DNA of 64,000 bases from the NCBI GenBank assembly GCA_041664605.1, contig JBAYKO010000001.1, positions 83,586 through 147,585 of the forward strand. Direction: 5' to 3'. The notes below the pieces were generated by a model that had not been told where the DNA came from, made no database searches, and saw only the letters and a program-made list of their open reading frames with translations. This DNA is from Minisyncoccota bacterium (GTDB lineage: Bacteria; Patescibacteriota; Minisyncoccia; Phycocordibacterales; UBA9973). Made by a program: the position numbers and the translations under genes. Shown one piece after another: positions 1 through 35,763 of the stretch; positions within the stretch are counted from its first letter, which is position 1; the number at the start of each line of letters is the position of its first letter.

Positions 1-1041
1 CGCACTACTTTAAATGGAATAGCACAAGAATTTATTGATAGATCAATTGAAATTACAAAAAACGCAATAAAAAATTCCCCATTTAAAATGGAAGAAATTG
101 ATGAAATAATTTTAGTTGGAGGACAAACAAGAATGCCAGCTATTGTTGATGCAGTTAAAGAATTATTTGGAAAAGAACCAAATAGATCAATCAATCCAGA
201 CGAAGTGGTAGCACTCGGCGCTGCTGTTCAAGGTGGAGTTTTGAAAGGTGAAGTTAGAGATGTTTTACTTTTGGATGTTATTCCACTTTCTTTAGGCATC
301 GAAACTCTTGGGTCTGTTGCAACTAAATTAATTGAGAGAAATACAACCATTCCAGCCTCAAAATCTCAAGTTTTTTCAACCGCAGTAGATAATCAAACTT
401 CTGTTGAAATTCATATTGTGCAAGGAGAAAGGCCAATGGCAACTGACAATAAAAGTCTCGGCAGATTTATATTAGATGGAATTCCACCAGCACCACGCGG
501 AATGCCACAAGTGGAAGTTACTTTTGATGTTGATTCAAATGGAATTTTAAATGTTAAAGCTATGGATAAAGCTTCCGGCAAGGTTCAATCAATCCGCATT
601 GAAGCAAGTTCTGGTTTGACTGACGAAGATATAAAGAGAATGCAAAAAGATGCGGAAATAAATGCCGAAGAAGATAAAAAGAAAAAAGAAATTGCTGATG
701 TAAAAAATGGTGCTGAAGTTATGATTTATACTGCCGAAAAAGCGTTGAAAGACAATGCAGATAAAATAAGTGATGATATTACAAAGGGAGTTGAAGAAAA
801 AATTTCTAGTTTGAAAAATGTAAAAGACCTGCCTACCGGACAGGCAGGTGGAAGCGATTTAGAAGTTATAAAAAAAGCAACAGATGAACTTTCAATTGAA
901 ATGAGTAAAATTGGGGAAGAGATTATAAAACAACAAAAAGAAAATCCTGCACAAGCAAATCCTGCACAAGCAAATCCTGAACAAAAAACCGATGAGGGAA
1001 ATGTCCGTGATGCAGAAGTAGAAGAAGAAAAAAAAGAATAA
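1..1041 (+). CDS. dnaK: Chaperone DnaK (Hsp70), C-terminal portion; start lies upstream of window
   Basis: Frame-1 translation from nt 1 continues the ORF. Substrate-binding-domain motifs are present ([39 protein letters not shown]). The C-terminal tail is acidic with NPAQA repeats. Confidence 0.93.
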
Positions 1042-1048
1042 TTTTTAA

Positions 1049-1089
1049 AAGGTGCGACCTTAAAAGTTTTACACCCAAGGTCGTTCCTT
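1049..1089 (+). repeat. 41-nt hairpin element copy 1 (AAGGTGCGACC-N19-GGTCGTTCCTT), 8 nt after dnaK stop
   Basis: Identical 41-mer recurs at 3178-3218 and inverted at 24510-24550. Predicted 11-bp stem with one U-U mismatch and a 19-nt loop. Confidence 0.7.
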
Positions 1090-1104
1090 GGAAAAATTTA
1101 AAAA

Positions 1105-1136
1105 TAAAAAACCCGCTCAACCGAGCGGATTTTTTA
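1105..1136. terminator. Bidirectional rho-independent terminator (CCGCTCAACCGAGCGG + T-run)
   Basis: GC stem 1113-1128 flanked by A-run and T-run. Lies between convergent dnaK (+) and lipoprotein gene (-). Same stem family recurs at 1599-1614 and 24160-24175. Confidence 0.8.
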
Positions 1137-2090: not shown

Positions 2091-3167
2091 ATGGCAAAAG
2101 ACTACTACAAATTATTAGAAATAGAAAAAGGCGCTAATAAAGAAGAAATTAAAAAGGCTTTTCATAAGTTGGCTCACAAGTATCACCCTGATAAAAAGGG
2201 TGGAAATGAGGCCAAATTTAAGGAAATTAACGAGGCTTATCAAATCCTTTCAGATGACAAAAAACGTGCCGAATATGACAGATTTGGGACAACTGGAGGG
2301 GCTTCAGGCTTTCAAGGTGGTGGTTTTGGTGGCTTTCAAGGAGGTTTTGACCAAGGTGGTTTTCAGGACTTTGATTTTGGTAATTTAAACGACATTTTTT
2401 CAGAATTCTTTACTGGTGGAATGGGTAGAGGTAGGGCACAAGAAAGACGAGGTAGGGATATTTCTACCGAACTTAATATTTCTTTCTATGATTCAATTTT
2501 TGGAATAGAGAGAAATATTTTATTAACTAAGGTTTCAAAATGTGAGACTTGCAAAGGAAGTGGAGCTAAAACAGGTACTGATTTAAAAAAATGTTCTACT
2601 TGCAACGGACAAGGAAAAATTCACGAGACAAAAAGATCTTTTCTTGGTTCTTTTTCAACTGTAAAAATTTGTGAAGAGTGTGGAGGTACAGGCACAGTAC
2701 CAGTTGAAAAATGTTCTGATTGTAAAGGCAGTGGAATTGTAAAAAAACAAGAAGATATAAAAATCACAATTCCGGCTGGAATGAGAGATGGAGAAATGAT
2801 TAGAATTACTGGTGAAGGTGAAGCTATTTCAAAAGGTGCATCTGGTGATCTTTATATAAAAATAAATGTTGCGCCACATCCAACTTTCAAAAGAGAAGGG
2901 TCAAATTTGATAATGGATTTAAATTTAAAATTATCTGACGCTTTACTTGGAACAGAATATAAAATAAATACTTTGGACGGCGATATAAAAGTAAGAATCC
3001 CTGAAGGAGTTGGAATTGGAGAAGTTTTGAGAGTTAAAGAAAAAGGAGTGCCTGTTTCAAAAAACAAAAGAGGGGATTTGTTTATTAGGCTTCATATAAA
3101 AATACCAAATAAACTTTCTAAAAAAGCAAAAGAATTAGTTGAAAAAATGAAAGAAGAAGGCATCTAG
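2091..3167 (+). CDS. dnaJ: Chaperone DnaJ
   Basis: J-domain with HPD (AHKYHPDKK), G/F-rich linker, four CxxCxGxG zinc-finger repeats, C-terminal substrate-binding domain. Confidence 0.95.
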   Translation: MAKDYYKLLEIEKGANKEEIKKAFHKLAHKYHPDKKGGNEAKFKEINEAYQILSDDKKRAEYDRFGTTGGASGFQGGGFGGFQGGFDQGGFQDFDFGNLNDIFSEFFTGGMGRGRAQERRGRDISTELNISFYDSIFGIERNILLTKVSKCETCKGSGAKTGTDLKKCSTCNGQGKIHETKRSFLGSFSTVKICEECGGTGTVPVEKCSDCKGSGIVKKQEDIKITIPAGMRDGEMIRITGEGEAISKGASGDLYIKINVAPHPTFKREGSNLIMDLNLKLSDALLGTEYKINTLDGDIKVRIPEGVGIGEVLRVKEKGVPVSKNKRGDLFIRLHIKIPNKLSKKAKELVEKMKEEGI

Positions 3168-3177
3168 GAATTTTTAA

Positions 3178-3218
3178 AAGGTGCGACCTTAAAAGTTTTA
3201 CACCCAAGGTCGTTCCTT
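3178..3218 (+). repeat. 41-nt hairpin element copy 2, 10 nt after dnaJ stop
   Basis: 41/41 identical to copy 1. Confidence 0.7.
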
Positions 3219-3261
3219 AGAAAAATTTCTTTAAAATTATCAAATTTGTTAAAATATGGAC

Positions 3262-5594: not shown

Positions 5595-6920
5595 AATTTT
5601 AGTAATTCTAGGTCCAGATGGAGTATCTTCTATATTGTAACCAGCAGTAGCACTAATTTGGCGAAATCTATCAGCTTCTTCCCAGTTTTTTTCTTTACGA
5701 ACTATTTCTCTTGCTTCTACTAATTTTAAAATATCTTCTGGAATTTCTAAAGTTTCTTTTTCCAACAATTTAAAACCAAAAATTTGATCAATTATTTCGA
5801 TTGTTTTATATTTTCCCTCAGCATTCTCATCTCGTAAAAGTTCCCATAGTGAAGCCAATGCTTTGGGGGTGTTTAAATCTGAATTCATAGCTTCTTTAAA
5901 TTTGTCTAAATATTTTTCATTTATTTTTCCATCATTTTTTAAATCTTTAGAAATATTTTTTAGTCTGTTGTAGGAGTTTTGAGCATCGTCTAATGAATTT
6001 TTTGAAAAATCTGTTGGTTTCCTGTAGTGTGCCGATGTAACAAAATATCTTATAATTTCACCAGAATAACTTAGAAGTATGTCTCTTATTGTTTTAAAGT
6101 TTCCAAGGCTTTTACTCATTTTTATTCCATCGACATTTACCATTCCATTGTGAATCCAGAAATTTGCCATTTTTGCACCCCAAGCAGATTCACTTTGGGC
6201 AATCTCATCTTCATGGTGGGGAAAGATCAAATCTTGTCCACCTCCGTGAATGTCAAAAGGAATTCCCAGAATACTTTCAGACATAGCAGAACATTCTATA
6301 TGCCAACCTGGTCTACCTTTGCCAAATGGGGTATCCCATTCTGGTTCATTTGGTTTTGAAAATTTCCAAAGTACAAAATCTTCCTTATTCTTTTTTTCTC
6401 TATTTTCTAGAACCCGCGCACCAGATTTTAAATTTTCAATTTTTTGGTGGGACAGTTTTCCATATTCTTTGTATTTTGAAATATCAAAGTAAATTCCATC
6501 GTCTTTTATTGTATAAGCGTATTCTTTTTCAATAAGTAAAGTTACAAGATTTATCATTTGTTTGATATATTCTGTAGCTTTTGGTTCTACATCAGGTTTT
6601 TCTACTCCAATTTTCTCATAATCTTCAATATGAGCTTTTGTATTTTTTTCTGTTAAATCTTTTGTAGTCTCATGTAATTCGCGTGCTTTATCAATTATTT
6701 TGTCGTCAATATCAGTAATATTTGAAGCAAACATTACATCATAGCCTAGAAATCTTAAATATTTTCTTAAAATATCAAAAGTAATTTTCTGTCTTGCATG
6801 GCCTAAGTGGGGGACATCGTTTACTGTTGGTCCACAAACATACATTCTAACAGCACCTTCTTTTATGGGTTTAAATTCTTCTTCTTTTTTTGTGAGAGTG
6901 TTATAGAGTTTTAGAGACAT
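5592..6920 (-). CDS. cysS: Cysteinyl-tRNA synthetase
   Basis: HIGH (PHLGHAR), KMSKS (KMSKSLGN), CGPTVND zinc-site region. Confidence 0.93.
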   Translation of the reverse strand: MSLKLYNTLTKKEEEFKPIKEGAVRMYVCGPTVNDVPHLGHARQKITFDILRKYLRFLGYDVMFASNITDIDDKIIDKARELHETTKDLTEKNTKAHIEDYEKIGVEKPDVEPKATEYIKQMINLVTLLIEKEYAYTIKDDGIYFDISKYKEYGKLSHQKIENLKSGARVLENREKKNKEDFVLWKFSKPNEPEWDTPFGKGRPGWHIECSAMSESILGIPFDIHGGGQDLIFPHHEDEIAQSESAWGAKMANFWIHNGMVNVDGIKMSKSLGNFKTIRDILLSYSGEIIRYFVTSAHYRKPTDFSKNSLDDAQNSYNRLKNISKDLKNDGKINEKYLDKFKEAMNSDLNTPKALASLWELLRDENAEGKYKTIEIIDQIFGFKLLEKETLEIPEDILKLVEAREIVRKEKNWEEADRFRQISATAGYNIEDTPSGPRITKI

Positions 6921-9341: not shown

Positions 9342-9842
9342 ATGCTATCGCGGAATTTGAGTATAGAAGACAAAATTTTAAAACTTTTATTTGAGCCAAA
9401 ATATCGATATAAGGGTATGTTTGTCAGTACACTCGGTTTACCAGCCGTTTTTAAAAACAAAAAACAATCTATTACTAATGCTATTTATCGACTAAAGAAA
9501 GAAAATTATATCTTAAAAGAAGATAAGTGTATTCGAATACTTCCTAGGGGGGTAAAATATATTGAGAATAAAAAAAGCCGGCTTTTAATTTTTAATTCAT
9601 TGTATAAAAAAGGAGCACCCAAGAACCTATTAATTATGTTTGATATTCCAGAGATCAAAAAAGCCGAAAGGGAATGGTTTCGTTTTCACTTACGGAAGTT
9701 CGATTATTATATGATTCAAAAAAGCGTTTGGATTGGTCCTTCACCTTTACCGAAAGATTTTTTAGATTATTTAAAAGAAATTAAACTTGAAGAATGTATA
9801 AAAACATTCAAACTAGCCAAATCATTTAATACTCAAACTTAG
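9342..9842 (+). CDS. PadR-like winged-helix N-domain fused to a Cas2-like (VapD/Cas2 fold) C-domain; hypothetical regulator/nuclease
   Basis: The N-terminal about 90 aa resembles PadR-type wHTH. The C-terminal LLIMFDIPE...REWFRFHLRKFDYYMIQKSVW matches the Cas2 beta1 (hhhYDI) and RxxhxKxLxxyGxRhQxSVF signature. Confidence 0.5.
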   Translation: MLSRNLSIEDKILKLLFEPKYRYKGMFVSTLGLPAVFKNKKQSITNAIYRLKKENYILKEDKCIRILPRGVKYIENKKSRLLIFNSLYKKGAPKNLLIMFDIPEIKKAEREWFRFHLRKFDYYMIQKSVWIGPSPLPKDFLDYLKEIKLEECIKTFKLAKSFNTQT

Positions 9843-9886: not shown

Positions 9887-10501
9887 TTATTGACGATTTT
9901 TTAATGCATTTTTTATTGTATCACTATCAGAATATTCAAGTTCTGTGCCAGTAGAAAGTCCACGTCCTAAACTTGAAATTTTAAAAGAATATTTTTCTTG
10001 AAGTGGTGATAACATTTTTCTTATATAGATATCTGTATGTTCGCCGTGAGGATTTAAAGACATTGCAATTATTATTTCTTTTAATCCATTTTCTTTCAAA
10101 TCCTTCTCTACTCTTTGTAACAATTCTCTAATGCGAATTCTTTTCTCTGTATCTTTTTCTGTGATTGGAACAAGTCCTCCTAATATAAAATAATTTCCAC
10201 CATAAGTTCCACTTTTTTTCATACTTTCATAATCAGCGTCTTTTTCAATAACCATAAGTAGTGATTTGTCTGTATTTTTTCCAATACATATTTCACAAAA
10301 TTCTCTATCAGGATATTCGAAGTGCTTAAAACACATTTTACATTGAGAAGTTTGTTTTTTTAATTCAGAAATTAGATGCGTGAGTTCACTCACATAATCT
10401 TTATTTGAGGATAAAAGAAAATAAACAAAACGCTTGGCTTGCCTTTCGCCAATTCCGGGGAATTTTGCAAAATATTGAGATAGTTTATCGATTGGATTCA
10501 C
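9887..10501 (-). CDS. recR: Recombination protein RecR
   Basis: HhH (FPGIGERQAKRF), C4 zinc finger (CKMCF...CEIC), Toprim domain. The ORF-track start at 10522 is a TTG inside the repeat element. A GTG at 10499-10501 directly follows the element, as in the other copies. Confidence 0.85.
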   Translation of the reverse strand: MNPIDKLSQYFAKFPGIGERQAKRFVYFLLSSNKDYVSELTHLISELKKQTSQCKMCFKHFEYPDREFCEICIGKNTDKSLLMVIEKDADYESMKKSGTYGGNYFILGGLVPITEKDTEKRIRIRELLQRVEKDLKENGLKEIIIAMSLNPHGEHTDIYIRKMLSPLQEKYSFKISSLGRGLSTGTELEYSDSDTIKNALKNRQ

Positions 10502-10645
10502 CCCATTAGAAATAGGAAACAATCAAACGACTGTTTGTTTGATTGTTTCCATAGCTTATTAATTGTTTTGATAAATTTATCGATTTCATTTTTTATATAA
10601 TTTTTATTTTAATATCTTAACTGATAGATTTCTAACGGGACTCAT
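10502..10645 (-). repeat. Start-codon-abutting inverted-repeat element, copy D (dnaB-recR spacer)
   Basis: Distal end CATGAGTCCCGTTAGAAATCT (rc of 10625-10645). Proximal end CCTATTTCTAATGGG sits immediately before the recR GTG. Internal sequence is about 80% identical to copy E. Confidence 0.75.
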
Positions 10646-13659: not shown

Positions 13660-14514
13660 ATGTCTATAAAAAATAAAATTATTTTTTTTGTAATATTTTT
13701 TGTCATTCTATTTGGATTGTATACTCCGAACATTTTTGCTCAAACAGAAAACACAACCCCGGTCAATATTGGGTTTGTCCCTGGTAATATTTGGTATTCA
13801 CAAGATCCTTTTATGGAGGGTGATTTAATTAAAATTTACACACTGGTTTTTAATAATGGTAAGAACTCTATTTCAGGCACAGTTGAATTCTATGATAAAA
13901 ATGTAATTTTAGGAGATAAAAAATTTACACTTAAAGCCGGAGAAATTTTGCCAATTTATGTTGACTGGAAGGTTACTGCGGGAGATCATACTATGTCCGC
14001 AAAAATAATTGATTCTAAGATGGTTGTAAATAATACAACTGAATCTATCGTTTTAAAATATAGTCAAACAGACGAAGATGAGAGATTTGTTCCAAAAATT
14101 ATTCCTGCGAGCGAAAAAATTACAGACCAAACTAATAAACAAATAGAAAAAGTTACAAATTTTGTTTCTGAAAATACCCCTGCGTCTATAAAAGAACCTG
14201 TTATTTCAACTACAAAAAGTATTGAAGCTTTTAGAACAGATACTGCAGAAAAATTAGCTACTCAAAAAGAATCAACCCAAAAAGAAATAGAAGCTGTCGA
14301 TGAAAAAAGAGCTGAACAGTTAAAGAGTAATGGACAAGTTGATACTAGTACCAAAATAGAAAAACCACTCAAATATATAAAACTTTTTTTAATTAGTTTG
14401 TTTGCGTTTATTTTTAAAACAAAAGTAATTTTTTATCTATTAGCTCTTACTATTATTTTTTTAATTTTCAGATTTATTTTTAAGAAAATTTTCAAAAAGA
14501 AAAATGGTAAATAA
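13660..14514 (+). CDS. Hypothetical secreted/membrane-anchored protein (signal peptide plus C-terminal TM)
   Basis: N-terminal hydrophobic signal, C-terminal TM. Confidence 0.5.
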   Translation: MSIKNKIIFFVIFFVILFGLYTPNIFAQTENTTPVNIGFVPGNIWYSQDPFMEGDLIKIYTLVFNNGKNSISGTVEFYDKNVILGDKKFTLKAGEILPIYVDWKVTAGDHTMSAKIIDSKMVVNNTTESIVLKYSQTDEDERFVPKIIPASEKITDQTNKQIEKVTNFVSENTPASIKEPVISTTKSIEAFRTDTAEKLATQKESTQKEIEAVDEKRAEQLKSNGQVDTSTKIEKPLKYIKLFLISLFAFIFKTKVIFYLLALTIIFLIFRFIFKKIFKKKNGK

Positions 14515-14785
14515 GAATAATACACTATTTAGGATTCTTGCTGTAATATTTTTATTCATAAGTGTGTTATTTTTTCCTATCTGGATGACAATCCCACTTG
14601 GGATTATTTTTCTTTTTGTTTTTAATAATTTTTATGAATTTATAATACTTTCTTTGTTTAATGACTTGCTATATGGTGTGGAAGAACCAAGATTTTTCAC
14701 TATAAAATTTGTAACATTTTTAATTTCTTTAATTTTGTTTTTTGTGGTAAAAATACTGAAAAAGAAGATAAAATTTTACAGATAA
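14504..14785 (+). CDS. Hypothetical small membrane protein (3 TM)
   Basis: Highly hydrophobic 93 aa. Confidence 0.45.
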   Translation: MVNKNNTLFRILAVIFLFISVLFFPIWMTIPLGIIFLFVFNNFYEFIILSLFNDLLYGVEEPRFFTIKFVTFLISLILFFVVKILKKKIKFYR

Positions 14786-14791
14786 AACATT

Positions 14792-14935
14792 ATGAGTCCC
14801 GCCCGAAATCAATCAGTTAATATATTTAAATAAAAATTAAAATTACAATGAAATCAATAAATTTTGGAAAACAATCAATAAATTACGGAAATGCCAAAAC
14901 AGCTACTTGTTTAGGCATTTCCTATTTCTAACGGG
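14792..14935 (+). repeat. Start-codon-abutting inverted-repeat element, copy E (upstream ORF-PBP2 spacer)
   Basis: Begins 6 nt after the upstream stop codon with ATGAGTCCCGCCCGAAAT (degenerate distal repeat). Ends CCTATTTCTAACGGG directly before the PBP2 ATG. Internal hairpin GGAAATGCC...GGCATTTCC. Confidence 0.75.
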
Positions 14936-16636
14936 ATGAGAATATTCAAGAAAAAAAGAAAAATCTTTGAGATTGCTCCAGATGAAATATTTTTAGATTC
15001 AAAAAATATACCCCAATTTAATACCCAACAGATGGAGGGTAAAATTGAAAAACCAATCTCTAAAAAAACAACTGCTTTCCTGTGGTTATTTTTTCTCATA
15101 GTTATAAGTATTTTTACTTGGAAAATTTCAGCACTTCAGCTTGTAAAAGGTGAGTATTATTTTAAAAAAAGCCAAGATAACAGTTTAAATAGAAAAATTA
15201 TCTTTGCTGATAGGGGAATAATTTATGACAGGAATAATGTAAGACTTGCATGGAATAGTGAAATAATGGGTGACACTGGAGATATTAGTGAGAAATTTTT
15301 ACTTAGATCATATATAAAATCTCCAGGGTTATCTCATGTACTAGGATATGTTAGCTACCCTAAAAAAGATAAATCGGGAAATTACTGGAGAGAAGTATTT
15401 ACTGGAAAAGATGGCGTTGAAAAAAAATACGACAATATTTTAAAAGGAGAAAATGGTGAAAAACTTTTAGAAAAAGATGCCCTTAATACTATTCAGTCTG
15501 AGAGCGTTGTTAATCCATCTAAAAATGGTGATAATGTTGTTTTAAGTATTGACTCAGGAGTTCAAACAAAACTTTTTGAAGCTATAAAAAGTCTAGCAGG
15601 ATCTTCTTCTTATGTTGGTGGAGGTGGGGTTTTAATGGACATAAATAATGGAGAAATTTTAGCTATTACGAGTTACCCAGAATATGATTCCGAAATTATG
15701 TCACTAGGCAGTGATTCAAATACAATTGGAGATTATCAAAAAAGTAGTAGAAAACCATTTTTAAACAGAGCTTTAAATGTCTATGCTCCTGGATCTATTG
15801 TAAAACCCTTTATTGCTATGGGGGCATTAAATGAGCAGGTCATTGATCCATTAAAAAAAATATTAAGCACTGGATCTATTTCAATTCCTAATCCATATTT
15901 TCCAGATAAGCCATCTATTTTTAAAGACTGGAAGGCTCATGGTTGGGTAGATATGCGTCGTGCACTTGCAGTATCTTCTGACGTTTATTTTTATGAAGTT
16001 GGAGGGGGATACAAAGATCAAAAAGGTTTAGGAATTGTAAACATAGATAAGTATATGAAAATGTTTATGGTGGGAGAAAAAACTGGAGTTGATTTATATG
16101 GAGAAAATGAAGGAGTAATACCAACCCCAGAATGGAAAGAATTGAATTTTAATGGTGACCCATGGAGGGTTGGAGATACTTATCATACCTCAATTGGGCA
16201 ATATGGATTTCAGGTTTCCCCAATTCAAATGGTGCGTGCTATTTCTGCTATAGCAAATGACGGCACCCTTGTTTCTCCTCATGTTGTTTTGGGAGATAAA
16301 AATTTTGAAAATAAAACTGAAAAAATTGAATTAAATACAAGTTATTTTGATATTGTAAAAGAGGGGATGAGAGGAGTCGTAATGCCAGGAGGAACAGCTA
16401 CAATGCTTGATGTTCCTTATGTTAAAGTGGCAGCTAAAACTGGTAGTGCCCAAGTTGGAATTTCAAAAAAAAATATGCACGCCTGGGTTATAGGATTTTT
16501 CCCTTATGAAAAACCAAGATATGCTTTTGCAGTTTTAATGGAAAGTGGGCCATCTCAAGGAGCATCGGGAGCTCAATATGTAATGAGACAAGTTCTTGAT
16601 TGGATGAGTATAAATGCTCCGGAATATTTCAAGTAA
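14936..16636 (+). CDS. Class B penicillin-binding protein (PBP2/FtsI-type transpeptidase)
   Basis: N-terminal TM and dimerisation domain. Transpeptidase motifs SxxK (GSIVKPF), SSD (SxN), KTGS (KTGSAQ). Confidence 0.88.
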   Translation: MRIFKKKRKIFEIAPDEIFLDSKNIPQFNTQQMEGKIEKPISKKTTAFLWLFFLIVISIFTWKISALQLVKGEYYFKKSQDNSLNRKIIFADRGIIYDRNNVRLAWNSEIMGDTGDISEKFLLRSYIKSPGLSHVLGYVSYPKKDKSGNYWREVFTGKDGVEKKYDNILKGENGEKLLEKDALNTIQSESVVNPSKNGDNVVLSIDSGVQTKLFEAIKSLAGSSSYVGGGGVLMDINNGEILAITSYPEYDSEIMSLGSDSNTIGDYQKSSRKPFLNRALNVYAPGSIVKPFIAMGALNEQVIDPLKKILSTGSISIPNPYFPDKPSIFKDWKAHGWVDMRRALAVSSDVYFYEVGGGYKDQKGLGIVNIDKYMKMFMVGEKTGVDLYGENEGVIPTPEWKELNFNGDPWRVGDTYHTSIGQYGFQVSPIQMVRAISAIANDGTLVSPHVVLGDKNFENKTEKIELNTSYFDIVKEGMRGVVMPGGTATMLDVPYVKVAAKTGSAQVGISKKNMHAWVIGFFPYEKPRYAFAVLMESGPSQGASGAQYVMRQVLDWMSINAPEYFK

Positions 16637-20871: not shown

Positions 20872-20902
20872 TAAAACCCCGCAATTTCTCGCGGGGTTTT
20901 TT
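20872..20902. terminator. Bidirectional terminator (CCCCGCAATTTCTCGCGGGG + T-run)
   Basis: Stem 20877-20896 between scpB (+) and ORF 20904-21182 (-). Confidence 0.8.
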
Positions 20903-24388: not shown

Positions 24389-24509
24389 ATATATAAGAAC
24401 TTAATTTAATTTTCTATTGTAGAGTCTATCACATATATAATATTTTGTCAACAACTTTAAAAATAAAAATATCCTTTCAAATAAAGCGATTTTTGGTATA
24501 ATTTTTTAC

Positions 24510-24550
24510 AAGGAACGATCTTGAGTGTAAAACTTTTAAGGTCGCACCTT
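24510..24550 (-). repeat. 41-nt hairpin element copy 3 (inverted orientation), 22 nt upstream of ftsW ATG
   Basis: Reverse complement matches copies 1/2 at 38/41 positions (CACTCAAGATCG vs CACCCAAGGTCG). Confidence 0.65.
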
Positions 24551-24572
24551 TCAAAAAATTTTACAAATTGAA

Positions 24573-31445: not shown

Positions 31446-31889
31446 TTCTTCTCTTTCTATAATTAATTTAAAAGATGATTTTTTATTTTTTATATCAATC
31501 TGGATTTCGTATTCCCCAAGTTCCTTTATTGGTTTGTTTAAAACAAGAGCTTCTTCTGAAATTGTTATATTGTGAAGTTTTTGCATTTGAGAAATAATTT
31601 CTTTTTTGTTTACACCCGAGAATAAGCTTCCTGATTCACTTGCTCTTTCTTTTATTATTACAACTTTTCCTTTAATTTCGTCTAGATTTTTTATAAGAAG
31701 ATCATCTTGAATTTGTCTTTCTATTTGAACATTCTTTTTCATTTTTTCTATTTCCTTTGCAACTTCCGTGGTTGCAATTTTTGCTAATTTCTTGGGTATT
31801 AGAAAATTCATTGCAAATCCATCATTTACATCTTTGATATCATATTTATTTCCTATTCTAGGAACATTACTAAGTAATACAACTTTCAT
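31443..31889 (-). CDS. rplI: 50S ribosomal protein L9
   Basis: MKVVLLSNVPRIGNKYDIKDVNDGFAMNFLIP N-domain, long helix, C-domain. Confidence 0.9.
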   Translation of the reverse strand: MKVVLLSNVPRIGNKYDIKDVNDGFAMNFLIPKKLAKIATTEVAKEIEKMKKNVQIERQIQDDLLIKNLDEIKGKVVIIKERASESGSLFSGVNKKEIISQMQKLHNITISEEALVLNKPIKELGEYEIQIDIKNKKSSFKLIIEREE

Positions 31890-32015
31890 CCCATTAGAAG
31901 TAGATCGCGATCAATTCACGCATCTGGTTAATTAGGTTATTAATATTTATTATATTTGATTTCATAATTATTGTTTATTGTTTAAATTGCGATCGCGACT
32001 TCTAACGGGATTCAT
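31890..32015 (-). repeat. Start-codon-abutting inverted-repeat element, copy C (ctpA-rplI intercistronic spacer)
   Basis: Distal ATGAATCCCGTTAGAAGTCGCGATCGC and proximal GATCGCGATCTACTTCTAATGGG give an extended inverted repeat of about 25 nt including GATCGCGATC palindromes. It abuts the rplI ATG and begins 10 nt after the ctpA stop. Confidence 0.75.
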
Positions 32016-35099: not shown

Positions 35100-35660
35100 T
35101 TAGTAATAATATCCTCCCTTTACTTTAAATTTCTTTTTATCAAAAGTTACTACCATATACCAGTTCCAGGATACGGTCTTATCATCTTTTCCCACGAAAT
35201 CAAACCATATTCTTGGAAATATTTCTTTATTAATCCACCTTTCTGGTTCTTCTGACGCAGGATCGACAATAATTATATTTTTATCAGTTACATTTACAAC
35301 AACACTATAATGATCATCATTTTCATCAAACCAACCAATAATAACCGGTAATTTTTCTTCACGAATAAAATATTCCAATTCTTCTATTGATCCGTTTTCT
35401 TTTACATAAACAAAGCCACCAATTTCTTTTATGGCCTGGATCATTCCTTCATGCTCTGTCCCCTCACCTCTTCCCATTCCTGAAATACTACAAGCAACAT
35501 TAGCTAACTGTTCTTCTGTGTGATTTTTACCAAAATATGAAAGTAAAATTTTTAAAGAGGCTGGACCACAAAGTCCCATTGATTGTTGAAAAGGTTCCAC
35601 TTTAATTTTCTGCTCATCTCTGTTTACTGTATTTAATTTTTTCTTTTTCTTCCACATCAT
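35100..35660 (-). CDS. Papain-like cysteine peptidase, C39-like (Peptidase_C39_2-type) domain protein
   Basis: Catalytic Cys in GLCGPASLKILLSYFG and His in DDHYSVVVNV, with Asp/Asn downstream. Confidence 0.6.
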   Translation of the reverse strand: MMWKKKKKLNTVNRDEQKIKVEPFQQSMGLCGPASLKILLSYFGKNHTEEQLANVACSISGMGRGEGTEHEGMIQAIKEIGGFVYVKENGSIEELEYFIREEKLPVIIGWFDENDDHYSVVVNVTDKNIIIVDPASEEPERWINKEIFPRIWFDFVGKDDKTVSWNWYMVVTFDKKKFKVKGGYYY

Positions 35661-35763
35661 CCCATTAGAAATAGTTTATTTAAAACAAACTATATTTTTA
35701 CTCTGATAATTTAATCGCCTTTATTTTTAAAATTTTATTCCGCTAATTTCTAACGGGACAAGT
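35661..35763 (-). repeat. Start-codon-abutting inverted-repeat element, copy B (upstream of C39-like peptidase)
   Basis: Distal CTTGTCCCGTTAGAAATTAG (lacks the ATG). Proximal hairpin ATAGTTT...AAACTAT followed by TTTCTAATGGG then ATGATG. Confidence 0.7.

Follow-up and report, generated by a model that had tools for sequence, protein, structure and literature searches.

The gene for penicillin-binding protein 2 (PBP2) in a genomic stretch of 64,000 nucleotides from a Minisyncoccota bacterium (contig JBAYKO010000001.1, positions 83,586 to 147,585; hereafter the window) very probably owes its present start codon to the insertion of a MITE (miniature inverted-repeat transposable element), which duplicated the original start and rebuilt it at the far end of the insert. 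This copy of the element, here called copy E, is one of five in the window. Judged from the sequences, the family is a small non-coding transposon found at gene start codons across many lineages of Patescibacteria. Its anatomy is that of a MITE, as it is short and non-coding, ends in inverted repeats and is bordered by target-site duplications of constant length. A preliminary description had read the same region as a leader in which translation of a short upstream open reading frame (ORF) melts a long-range helix in front of the main start codon. A full-text search of the literature found no description of the element.

Copy E occupies positions 14797..14936 on the forward strand, as do all features in this part of the window. 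Its ends are the outermost inverted-repeat pair T14797/A14936, and A14936 is at the same time the first base of the PBP2 start codon. The left, gene-distal arm (14798..14809) is degenerate, CCCGCCCGAAAT as compared with the consensus CCCGTTAGAAAT, and the right, gene-proximal arm ATTTCTAACGGG (14924..14935) lies directly 5' of the ATG at 14936. Just inside the right arm, a subterminal hairpin GGAAATGCC...GGCATTTCC is found at 14887..14922. The element is flanked by ATGAGT on the left and ATGAGA on the right, and these flanks contain the two copies of a 4-bp target-site duplication, TGAG, at 14793..14796 and 14937..14940. Together with A14792, the left TGAG would be the relic of the original start codon, and the right one, together with the element-terminal A14936, rebuilds ATG AG.. 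at the beginning of the PBP2 gene (14936..16636, 566 amino acids, PBP_dimer and Transpeptidase domains). A 13-codon ORF, MSPARNQSVNIFK* (14792..14833; ATG AGT CCC GCC CGA AAT CAA TCA GTT AAT ATA TTT AAA TAA), opens at the relic start and runs into the element. Upstream, a 93-amino-acid ORF in the MreD position (14504..14785), assigned by position only and without a match in a Pfam search, has its stop 6 nt before the relic ATG.

These features can be accounted for by a single event. The element would have inserted into A|TGAG of the PBP2 start and left the original ATG at its left flank, and the new start at the right flank would consist of the element's last base, A, and the duplicated TG. 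The supposed leader ORF would then be the old start read into the element until a chance stop, and the supposed long-range helix would be the two inverted repeats paired in the transcript.

An arm-based scan of Bacteria and Archaea with one genome per species, using a pattern that admitted lengths of 95-140 nt, revealed at least 127 copies at no fewer than 120 loci beyond the window. The common anatomy is Y-CCCGTTAGAART, a variable AT-rich interior, and AYTTCTAAYGGG-R. Immediately beyond the 12-nt arms, the flanking pair of bases is C..G in 64 of the 127 copies, T..A in 60 and non-complementary in 3; as they are complementary in 124 copies, the inverted repeat comprises 13 bp. Arm position 11 varies, with an A-T pair in 37 cases, G-C in 32 and a non-Watson-Crick pair in 2. 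The copies in the window are AT-rich and 97-138 nt long, those from the scan about 92-139 nt, and forms of 27-77 nt occur beside them. The element has no ORF of its own, only chance short ORFs. The next four bases are identical on both sides in 84 of the 127 copies, and no other duplication length fits, apart from a few copies with 3 or 5 bp. The most common duplications are TGAA (39), TGGA (10), TATG (7), TTGA (6), TGAG (6) and TAAA (5). A 6-bp duplication was considered and rejected, as the sixth base is not duplicated and C..G elements turn ATG into GTG.

Nearly all matches listed belong to metagenome-assembled genomes (MAGs) of Patescibacteria (candidate phyla radiation, CPR), with host labels such as Saccharibacteria, Paceibacterota, Kazan and others, and further Nomura-, Kaiser-, Nealson-, Moran-, Kerfeld-, Falkow-, Doudna-, Komeili- and Yanofskybacteria. 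Up to 3 copies were found in single 8-kb loci. The interiors are highly diverse, and few copies exceed 85% identity. Conserved ends, diverse interiors and mostly perfect duplications together suggest many diverged source elements that share only their ends.

The position of the element relative to genes is often precise. An ORF of at least 80 codons begins exactly at the element end in 66 of 127 copies and two bases later in 5 more, in which the duplication is TATG. Any ORF start within -1..+9 of the element end was counted in 76 of 127 copies, as compared with about 8% per orientation at random positions, and several further start-associated copies escaped the strict criteria. Of 58 copies with a TGRR-type duplication, 54 have an A before it, and 51 of these lie at real ORF starts, so that the target can be given as A|TGRR in the first codon. 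The rebuilt start codon is composed of the element's last base (A or G) and the TG of the duplication, so that T..A elements yield ATG and C..G elements GTG. The left copy of the duplication keeps the original ATG (A and the duplicated TG..), which is the distal ATG noted before. Of the 48 remaining copies with an assignable position, 37 lie at non-start, intergenic-like sites. In six copies (loci L007, L033, L082, L104, L111 and L118), the duplication TTGA lies inside GTTGAC(A), which resembles a -35 box, and this hexamer is restored at the right flank in the same manner as the start codon.

The other four copies in the window lie on the reverse strand. Copy D (10502-10639; 10501..10640 with the outer pair, here T.G) is located before recR, has the duplication TGAG/TGAA and adjoins a GTG start at 10501-10499. 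Copy C (31890-32009; 31889..32010 with the outer pair) precedes the gene for ribosomal protein L9, with the duplication TGAA/TGAA within the flanks ATGAAT and ATGAAA. Copy A (42317-42435; 42316..42436 with the outer pair), before a peptide chain release factor gene, has perfect arms and the duplication TGAG/TGAG, is flanked by ATGAGT on both sides, and a -10-like box, TAAAAT, ends 6 nt before its relic ATG. Copy B (35661-35757; 35660..35758 with the outer pair), before a peptidase C39-like gene, has ACTTGT as left flank and neither a duplication nor a distal ATG. Across the window the duplication is therefore perfect in A, C and E, has one mismatch in D and is absent in B. All five copies adjoin a start codon in the same orientation relative to the gene. 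A two-arm pattern search of the window matched A (on both strands), B, C and D, with copy E escaping by its degenerate distal arm, and found no match in 100 dinucleotide shuffles of the window. A possible sixth copy at 20884 turned out to be an ordinary terminator.

Copy B belongs to a class of 10 copies in different genomes, identified by a flank search, in which the left flank RCTTGT stands directly before CCCG and both duplication and relic ATG are lacking (copy B, window 35758-35763 on the reverse strand; L015, L025, L050, L068, L106, L107, L110, L114 and L120). The variant TTCTAATGGG is present in 5 of the 10. In the RNA of this class, UUGU could pair with the main AUGA via two G.U pairs.

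Several arrangements beyond the standard form were also seen. Minimal forms of 27-31 nt consist of two arms and a short loop and also occur in clusters, some copies are nested in other copies, and tandem copies can be only 4 nt apart (L091, 6500-7110; L043, 6010-6095; L107, 1340-1450; L110, about 6230-6260; L073; L020). These forms agree with a mobile element. In L052, two 128-nt copies (544-671 and 1248-1375) are 100% identical, lie 704 bp apart and have similar right flanks, GTAAACCTTTTGA; they could represent a recent duplication or a composite arrangement. A few copies were found in MAGs labelled Omnitrophota, Planctomycetota/Planctomycetia, Sedimentisphaerales, Nitrospirae, Deltaproteobacteria and Thermodesulfobacteriota (L004, L034, L072, L076, L091, L100, L104 and L119), which could reflect either a wider host range or mis-binned Patescibacteria contigs.

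Sites without the element were found in relatives. In the closest relatives, in which PBP2 is 60-61% identical, 5-8 nt without an element separate the stop of the mreD-position ORF from the PBP2 ATG; in the window, the ORF in the same position ends 6 nt before the relic ATG, as in the element-free orthologues. For the site of copy C, one relative was found in which the gap from the end of an S41 peptidase gene to the L9 ATG is 3 nt, without the element.

Such sites also bear on the proposal that the copies are a family of structured non-coding RNAs or riboswitch-like leaders on unrelated genes and not mobile at all. The ends are conserved across lineages, the subterminal hairpin keeps the same shape while its stem sequence varies with compensating changes, and copy E folds better than its shuffled versions (z-score -3.14; 0 of 200 shuffles fold as well), all of which would suit a structured RNA. 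However, the 4-bp repeats at the flanks reproduce the second codon of the respective gene, and target-site duplications contradict an immobile family, as do the orthologous sites without the element and the copies at non-start positions, nested or in 27-nt minimal form. The five downstream genes in the window (PBP2, RecR, L9, C39 peptidase and release factor) have no common functional theme. Rfam at the gathering threshold detected two tRNAs only in the whole window, and for copies E and A the best hit at a permissive threshold was an unrelated lncRNA model (E = 0.066). An immobile RNA family is almost certainly not the explanation.

Expression signals of the host, a member of the Paceibacterota with 30% GC, help to understand what an insertion at a start codon would do. 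Shine-Dalgarno (SD) motifs are nearly absent from the genes of the window, many of which show a TATAAT-like box with its end 6-9 nt before the ATG (for example the starts at 9342, 17660, 28232, 44832(-), 48645(-), 62555(-) and 63319(-)). The spacer before the PBP2 gene had been called SD-less in the preliminary description, and this holds, with SD sequences largely lacking across the genome. For the most part, the organism thus seems to use leaderless or SD-independent initiation. Of 54 insertion sites, 24 have a TANNNT (-10) box with its end 6-8 nt before the relic ATG, and 2 have an SD-like motif; by this spacing and the near absence of SD motifs, many of the targets are recognisable as leaderless genes in which the first transcribed base is the A of the ATG. 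Copy E is operon-internal, and copy C probably is as well.

After insertion into a leaderless gene, the transcript would begin with the relic AUG, followed by a short ORF that arose by chance, and the real start would lie at the foot of the hairpin. The old start is probably still used, either at the 5' end of a leaderless mRNA or, in copy E, 6 nt after the upstream stop, and ribosomes on it would transiently open the helix. The gene itself would be translated from the rebuilt start by SD-independent initiation, as apparently used for all genes of this organism. The element would persist because an insertion at ATGRR by an element with a terminal purine leaves the gene intact.

Much of the anatomy of the leader originally proposed was described correctly. 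In copies A, C, D and E, the distal ATG opens a short ORF, and all four ORFs read exactly as given; the ORF extends through the distal arm, and pairing of the proximal arm reaches as far as the start codon. The 12-bp helix between the two ends stands for A, B, C and D, where the full arm helix forms. It does not for copy E, in which the degenerate arm allows only 9 of 12 positions to pair, as 6 bp, a 3-nt internal loop and 5 bp. In addition, the helix had been placed merely in front of the start codon, which has to be corrected: the base outside each arm pairs too, so that the first base of the main start codon lies inside the helix (in copy E, T14797 pairs with A14936 as the 13th pair). Masking of the main start is borne out by modelling, with -13..+1 paired in the minimum free energy and centroid structures. 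In the thermodynamic model, the mean probability of being unpaired is 0.03-0.38 for -13..+3, and this region is predicted to open to 0.39-0.48 when the first 30 nt are held single-stranded, as by a ribosome on the short ORF. Copy E has the smallest predicted gain in accessibility (0.38 to 0.43), and any effect of the upstream ORF is therefore predicted to be weakest there.

What comparison did not support is the idea of an evolved cis-regulatory device, in which translation of the upstream ORF melts the helix and licenses the main AUG. Besides the covered start and the modelled opening, it could draw on the relic ATG being kept in 54 of 71 start-associated copies, on many relic ATGs lying at leaderless promoters, where they should be translated, and on a bias in orientation (described below) that shows that polarity matters. 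However, upstream ORF and helix arise automatically from the duplication and the inverted repeats, and comparative tests gave no signal of selection. Mismatches between the two copies of the duplication number 12, 16, 12 and 13 by position, meaning that T and G of the relic ATG show neither protection nor purging as compared with the two bases after them (its A lies just outside the duplication). The short ORF varies from 6 to 41 codons, element length modulo 3 is distributed 18/30/23 (p = 0.2) and thus reveals no frame preference, and the frame of the short ORF showed no enrichment with respect to the right-arm TAA, which is located 4 nt ahead of the main start. In about one third of cases, the stop of the short ORF falls close to the right arm, roughly at this TAA, which is about chance level. 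At the two variable arm positions, G.U stands against A.C at 5 versus 3 in the loci, with 3 more G.U in the window and one further C.A among the loci at the outer pair, which is no significant excess of G.U. The sense RNA is the more stable one in 41 elements and the antisense RNA in 35, which is not significant (p = 0.08). Moreover, a class without the upstream ORF exists, including copy B. Copy E has the weakest helix and the smallest predicted effect. An evolved regulatory leader is hence judged quite improbable. As no selection signal was obtained and 10 copies have no relic ATG, opening of the helix by translation of the upstream ORF is treated as a likely physical consequence of the insertion and not as the reason for the structure.

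The orientation of the element is not random. A TCCT-type motif located just inside of one arm faces the gene in 23 copies and away from it in 2 (p = 2e-5); orientation was scored by this motif, as the interiors are too diverse for blastn to be usable. In 12 of the 23 copies with the motif at the right end, including A, D and E of the window, it ends a small hairpin of the form GGAAnnn...nnnTTCC. In A, D and E, an AATAA(A/T)-like box precedes this hairpin, which itself lies 13 nt before the start, and in one subfamily a TATATAA box is conserved about 17 nt ahead of the rebuilt GTG. The hairpin followed by TATTTCT scores as terminator-like in D (10515-10550, reverse strand) and A (42330-42347, reverse strand), directly before recR and the release factor gene. 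From these observations, a domesticated expression module could be proposed, in which the gene-facing end would act as a promoter, a 5' stabilising hairpin or an attenuator, and the mRNA would start inside the element, without the distal arm. The orientation bias, the two kinds of boxes and the terminator-like hairpins all fit in with such a module. A consensus promoter scan of copies E, D and A, however, gave no outward promoter beyond chance, and the conserved 13-nt end itself contains no -10 box. The interiors are too diverse for one common module, and immediately in front of an essential gene, a hairpin resembling a terminator would do harm and be of no use. Domestication as an expression module is therefore rather unlikely.

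By analogy to the Correia (nemis) elements of Neisseria, RNA processing might also be considered, as RNase III cleavage of their hairpins is a precedent. RNase III would cut the terminal helix, leaving an mRNA 5' end at or near the rebuilt AUG for leaderless translation. In predicted folds, a terminal helix of 13-22 bp closes the whole element in 5 of 5 window copies, and the apparently wide use of leaderless initiation in this organism would make such an mRNA suitable for translation. On the other hand, interruptions of the helix are frequent, as in copy E, and several helices do not reach the length of typical RNase III substrates; this route is considered very unlikely.

Some observations weigh against an insertion of a simple mobile element. 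Neither the 23:2 orientation bias nor the exact placement on start codons is explained by a neutral selfish element alone, the 10 copies with the RCTTGT flank do not fit the duplication model, and identical 13-bp ends in very distant lineages are unusual for a MITE. The exact reconstructed empty sites of copies A and C had no matches in metagenome contigs, and strain-level polymorphism was not found, with all contigs encoding an identical PBP2 carrying copy E. No autonomous element or transposase with these ends was detected in the window, nor in related loci amounting to about 0.8 Mb, nor in viral contigs: a search for solo ends and for end pairs 0.5-3.5 kb apart in the window and 120 loci returned only chance matches and the 27-77 nt forms, viral contigs scanned for the element ends gave no match, and a Pfam scan of 30 window proteins revealed no transposase or integrase. 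The cognate autonomous element is also missing for several accepted bacterial MITEs. As strain-level polymorphism was not seen, we infer mobility from the anatomy of the element and from the orthologous sites.

Going further, the element could be a transposon homing to start codons. Its integration machinery would recognise ATGRR, often the +1 position of a leaderless promoter, the terminal purine would have evolved to rebuild ATG or GTG, and the gene-facing end would permit SD-independent initiation. This extension of the insertion model is tentative, with chances somewhat below even. If true, it would amount to a safe-haven strategy by which one family colonised the streamlined genomes of the whole Patescibacteria radiation, and leaderless genes would be converted into genes with a leaderless mini-ORF and a structured leader.

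Insertions at start codons also have practical consequences. In the window, mechanical ORF calls begin inside the element at 42409 (reverse strand), which gives a release factor of 355 instead of 324 amino acids, and RecR is called at 10522 (reverse strand) from a TTG start 7 codons early, again inside the element. The first base of the Logan contig L126 falls within copy E, 26 nt upstream of the PBP2 gene. Start annotation may thus be distorted by the repeats of the element and assemblies broken at them, with ORF callers either choosing the relic start or continuing N-termini into the element. As a simple marker, the conserved 13-mer could be used to find and correct such starts across thousands of Patescibacteria genomes. 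Furthermore, essential genes (PBP2, release factor and L9) tolerate about 100-140 nt of structured RNA between the original and the working start without an SD sequence, and the elements are therefore natural probes of leaderless or SD-less initiation in CPR bacteria.

A second repeat, unrelated to the element, was noticed in the window. It is about 60-90 nt long and 84-90% identical between its copies, has the core GGTGCGACCTTAAAAGTTTTACACCCAAGGTCGTTCC and an internal hairpin, and is located at 1011-1109 (+), 3140-3228 (+) and 24490-24562 (-), after dnaK and dnaJ and before ftsW.

When known systems are compared, several can be set aside. Integron attC sites carry RYYYAAC at the 5' end and GTTRRRY at the 3' end and belong to cassettes accompanied by an integrase; in the element, GTTAGAA and TTCTAAC occur in the reverse order, with GTTAGAA 5', and the flanks are housekeeping genes without an integrase. 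A derivative of IS200/IS605 or REP/RAYT was rejected because of the 4-bp duplication, the true inverted repeats and the absence of GTAG/CGTC heads. Translational bypassing was discarded as well, as take-off and landing codons mostly differ in the third base.

Among transposon families, the ends resemble those of piggyBac/IS1380: the piggyBac end, CCCTAGAAAGATA, inserts at TTAA and is similar to CCCGTTAGAAAT. Both have ends of the type CCC...GGG and a 4-bp duplication, which in the present element starts with T and mostly ends with A (TGAA, TGGA, TTGA, TAAA). This likeness should be read as a lead only. Differences are the extra Y/R pair outside CCC/GGG, the duplication, which was never TTAA among the 127 copies, and the lack of a transposase found near the elements.

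The preliminary description called to mind attenuation of the ermC type and long-range coupling of the MS2 type, in which a short ORF overlaps one strand of a helix and the other strand masks an initiation region. Those systems, however, have a conserved leader peptide or stalling site and an SD sequence in the masked strand, whereas the ORF considered here arises as a by-product of the duplication, varies and is missing from some copies, and no SD sequence is present. Precise, gene-sparing insertion sites are also used by Ty3 (start sites of Pol III) and Tn7 (attTn7); the site here is +2..+5 of the start codon, often also of the leaderless transcription start. In contrast to Ty3 and Tn7, the pattern seen here could stem from a preference for ATGRR combined with purifying selection and not from recognition of the start machinery. 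If the preference for start codons is mechanistic, it would be a new kind of target choice for mobile elements.

The closest parallels are found in two groups of small bacterial elements. Correia (nemis) elements are MITEs of about 100-150 bp, confined to one genus, non-coding, with 26-bp repeats and a TA duplication; many copies lie beside genes and are co-transcribed into long mRNA hairpins with known effects on expression and processing. The size class, the lack of coding sequence, the inverted repeats, a short duplication and the co-transcribed hairpin beside genes are common to both, but there is no sequence similarity, and the present element has 13-bp repeats, a 4-bp duplication and hosts in many lineages. 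To our knowledge, Correia elements do not sit on start codons or rebuild them. Rickettsia palindromic elements (RPE) are likewise small, palindromic, mobile and gene-sparing in reduced genomes. They insert in frame into coding regions and are translated, whereas the present element, which has no sequence similarity to them, stays outside the protein and rebuilds the start codon. We know of no bacterial mobile element that lands on start codons and rebuilds them with its own last base. The placement on start codons, their rebuilding and a far wider host range set the present element apart from Correia elements and RPE.

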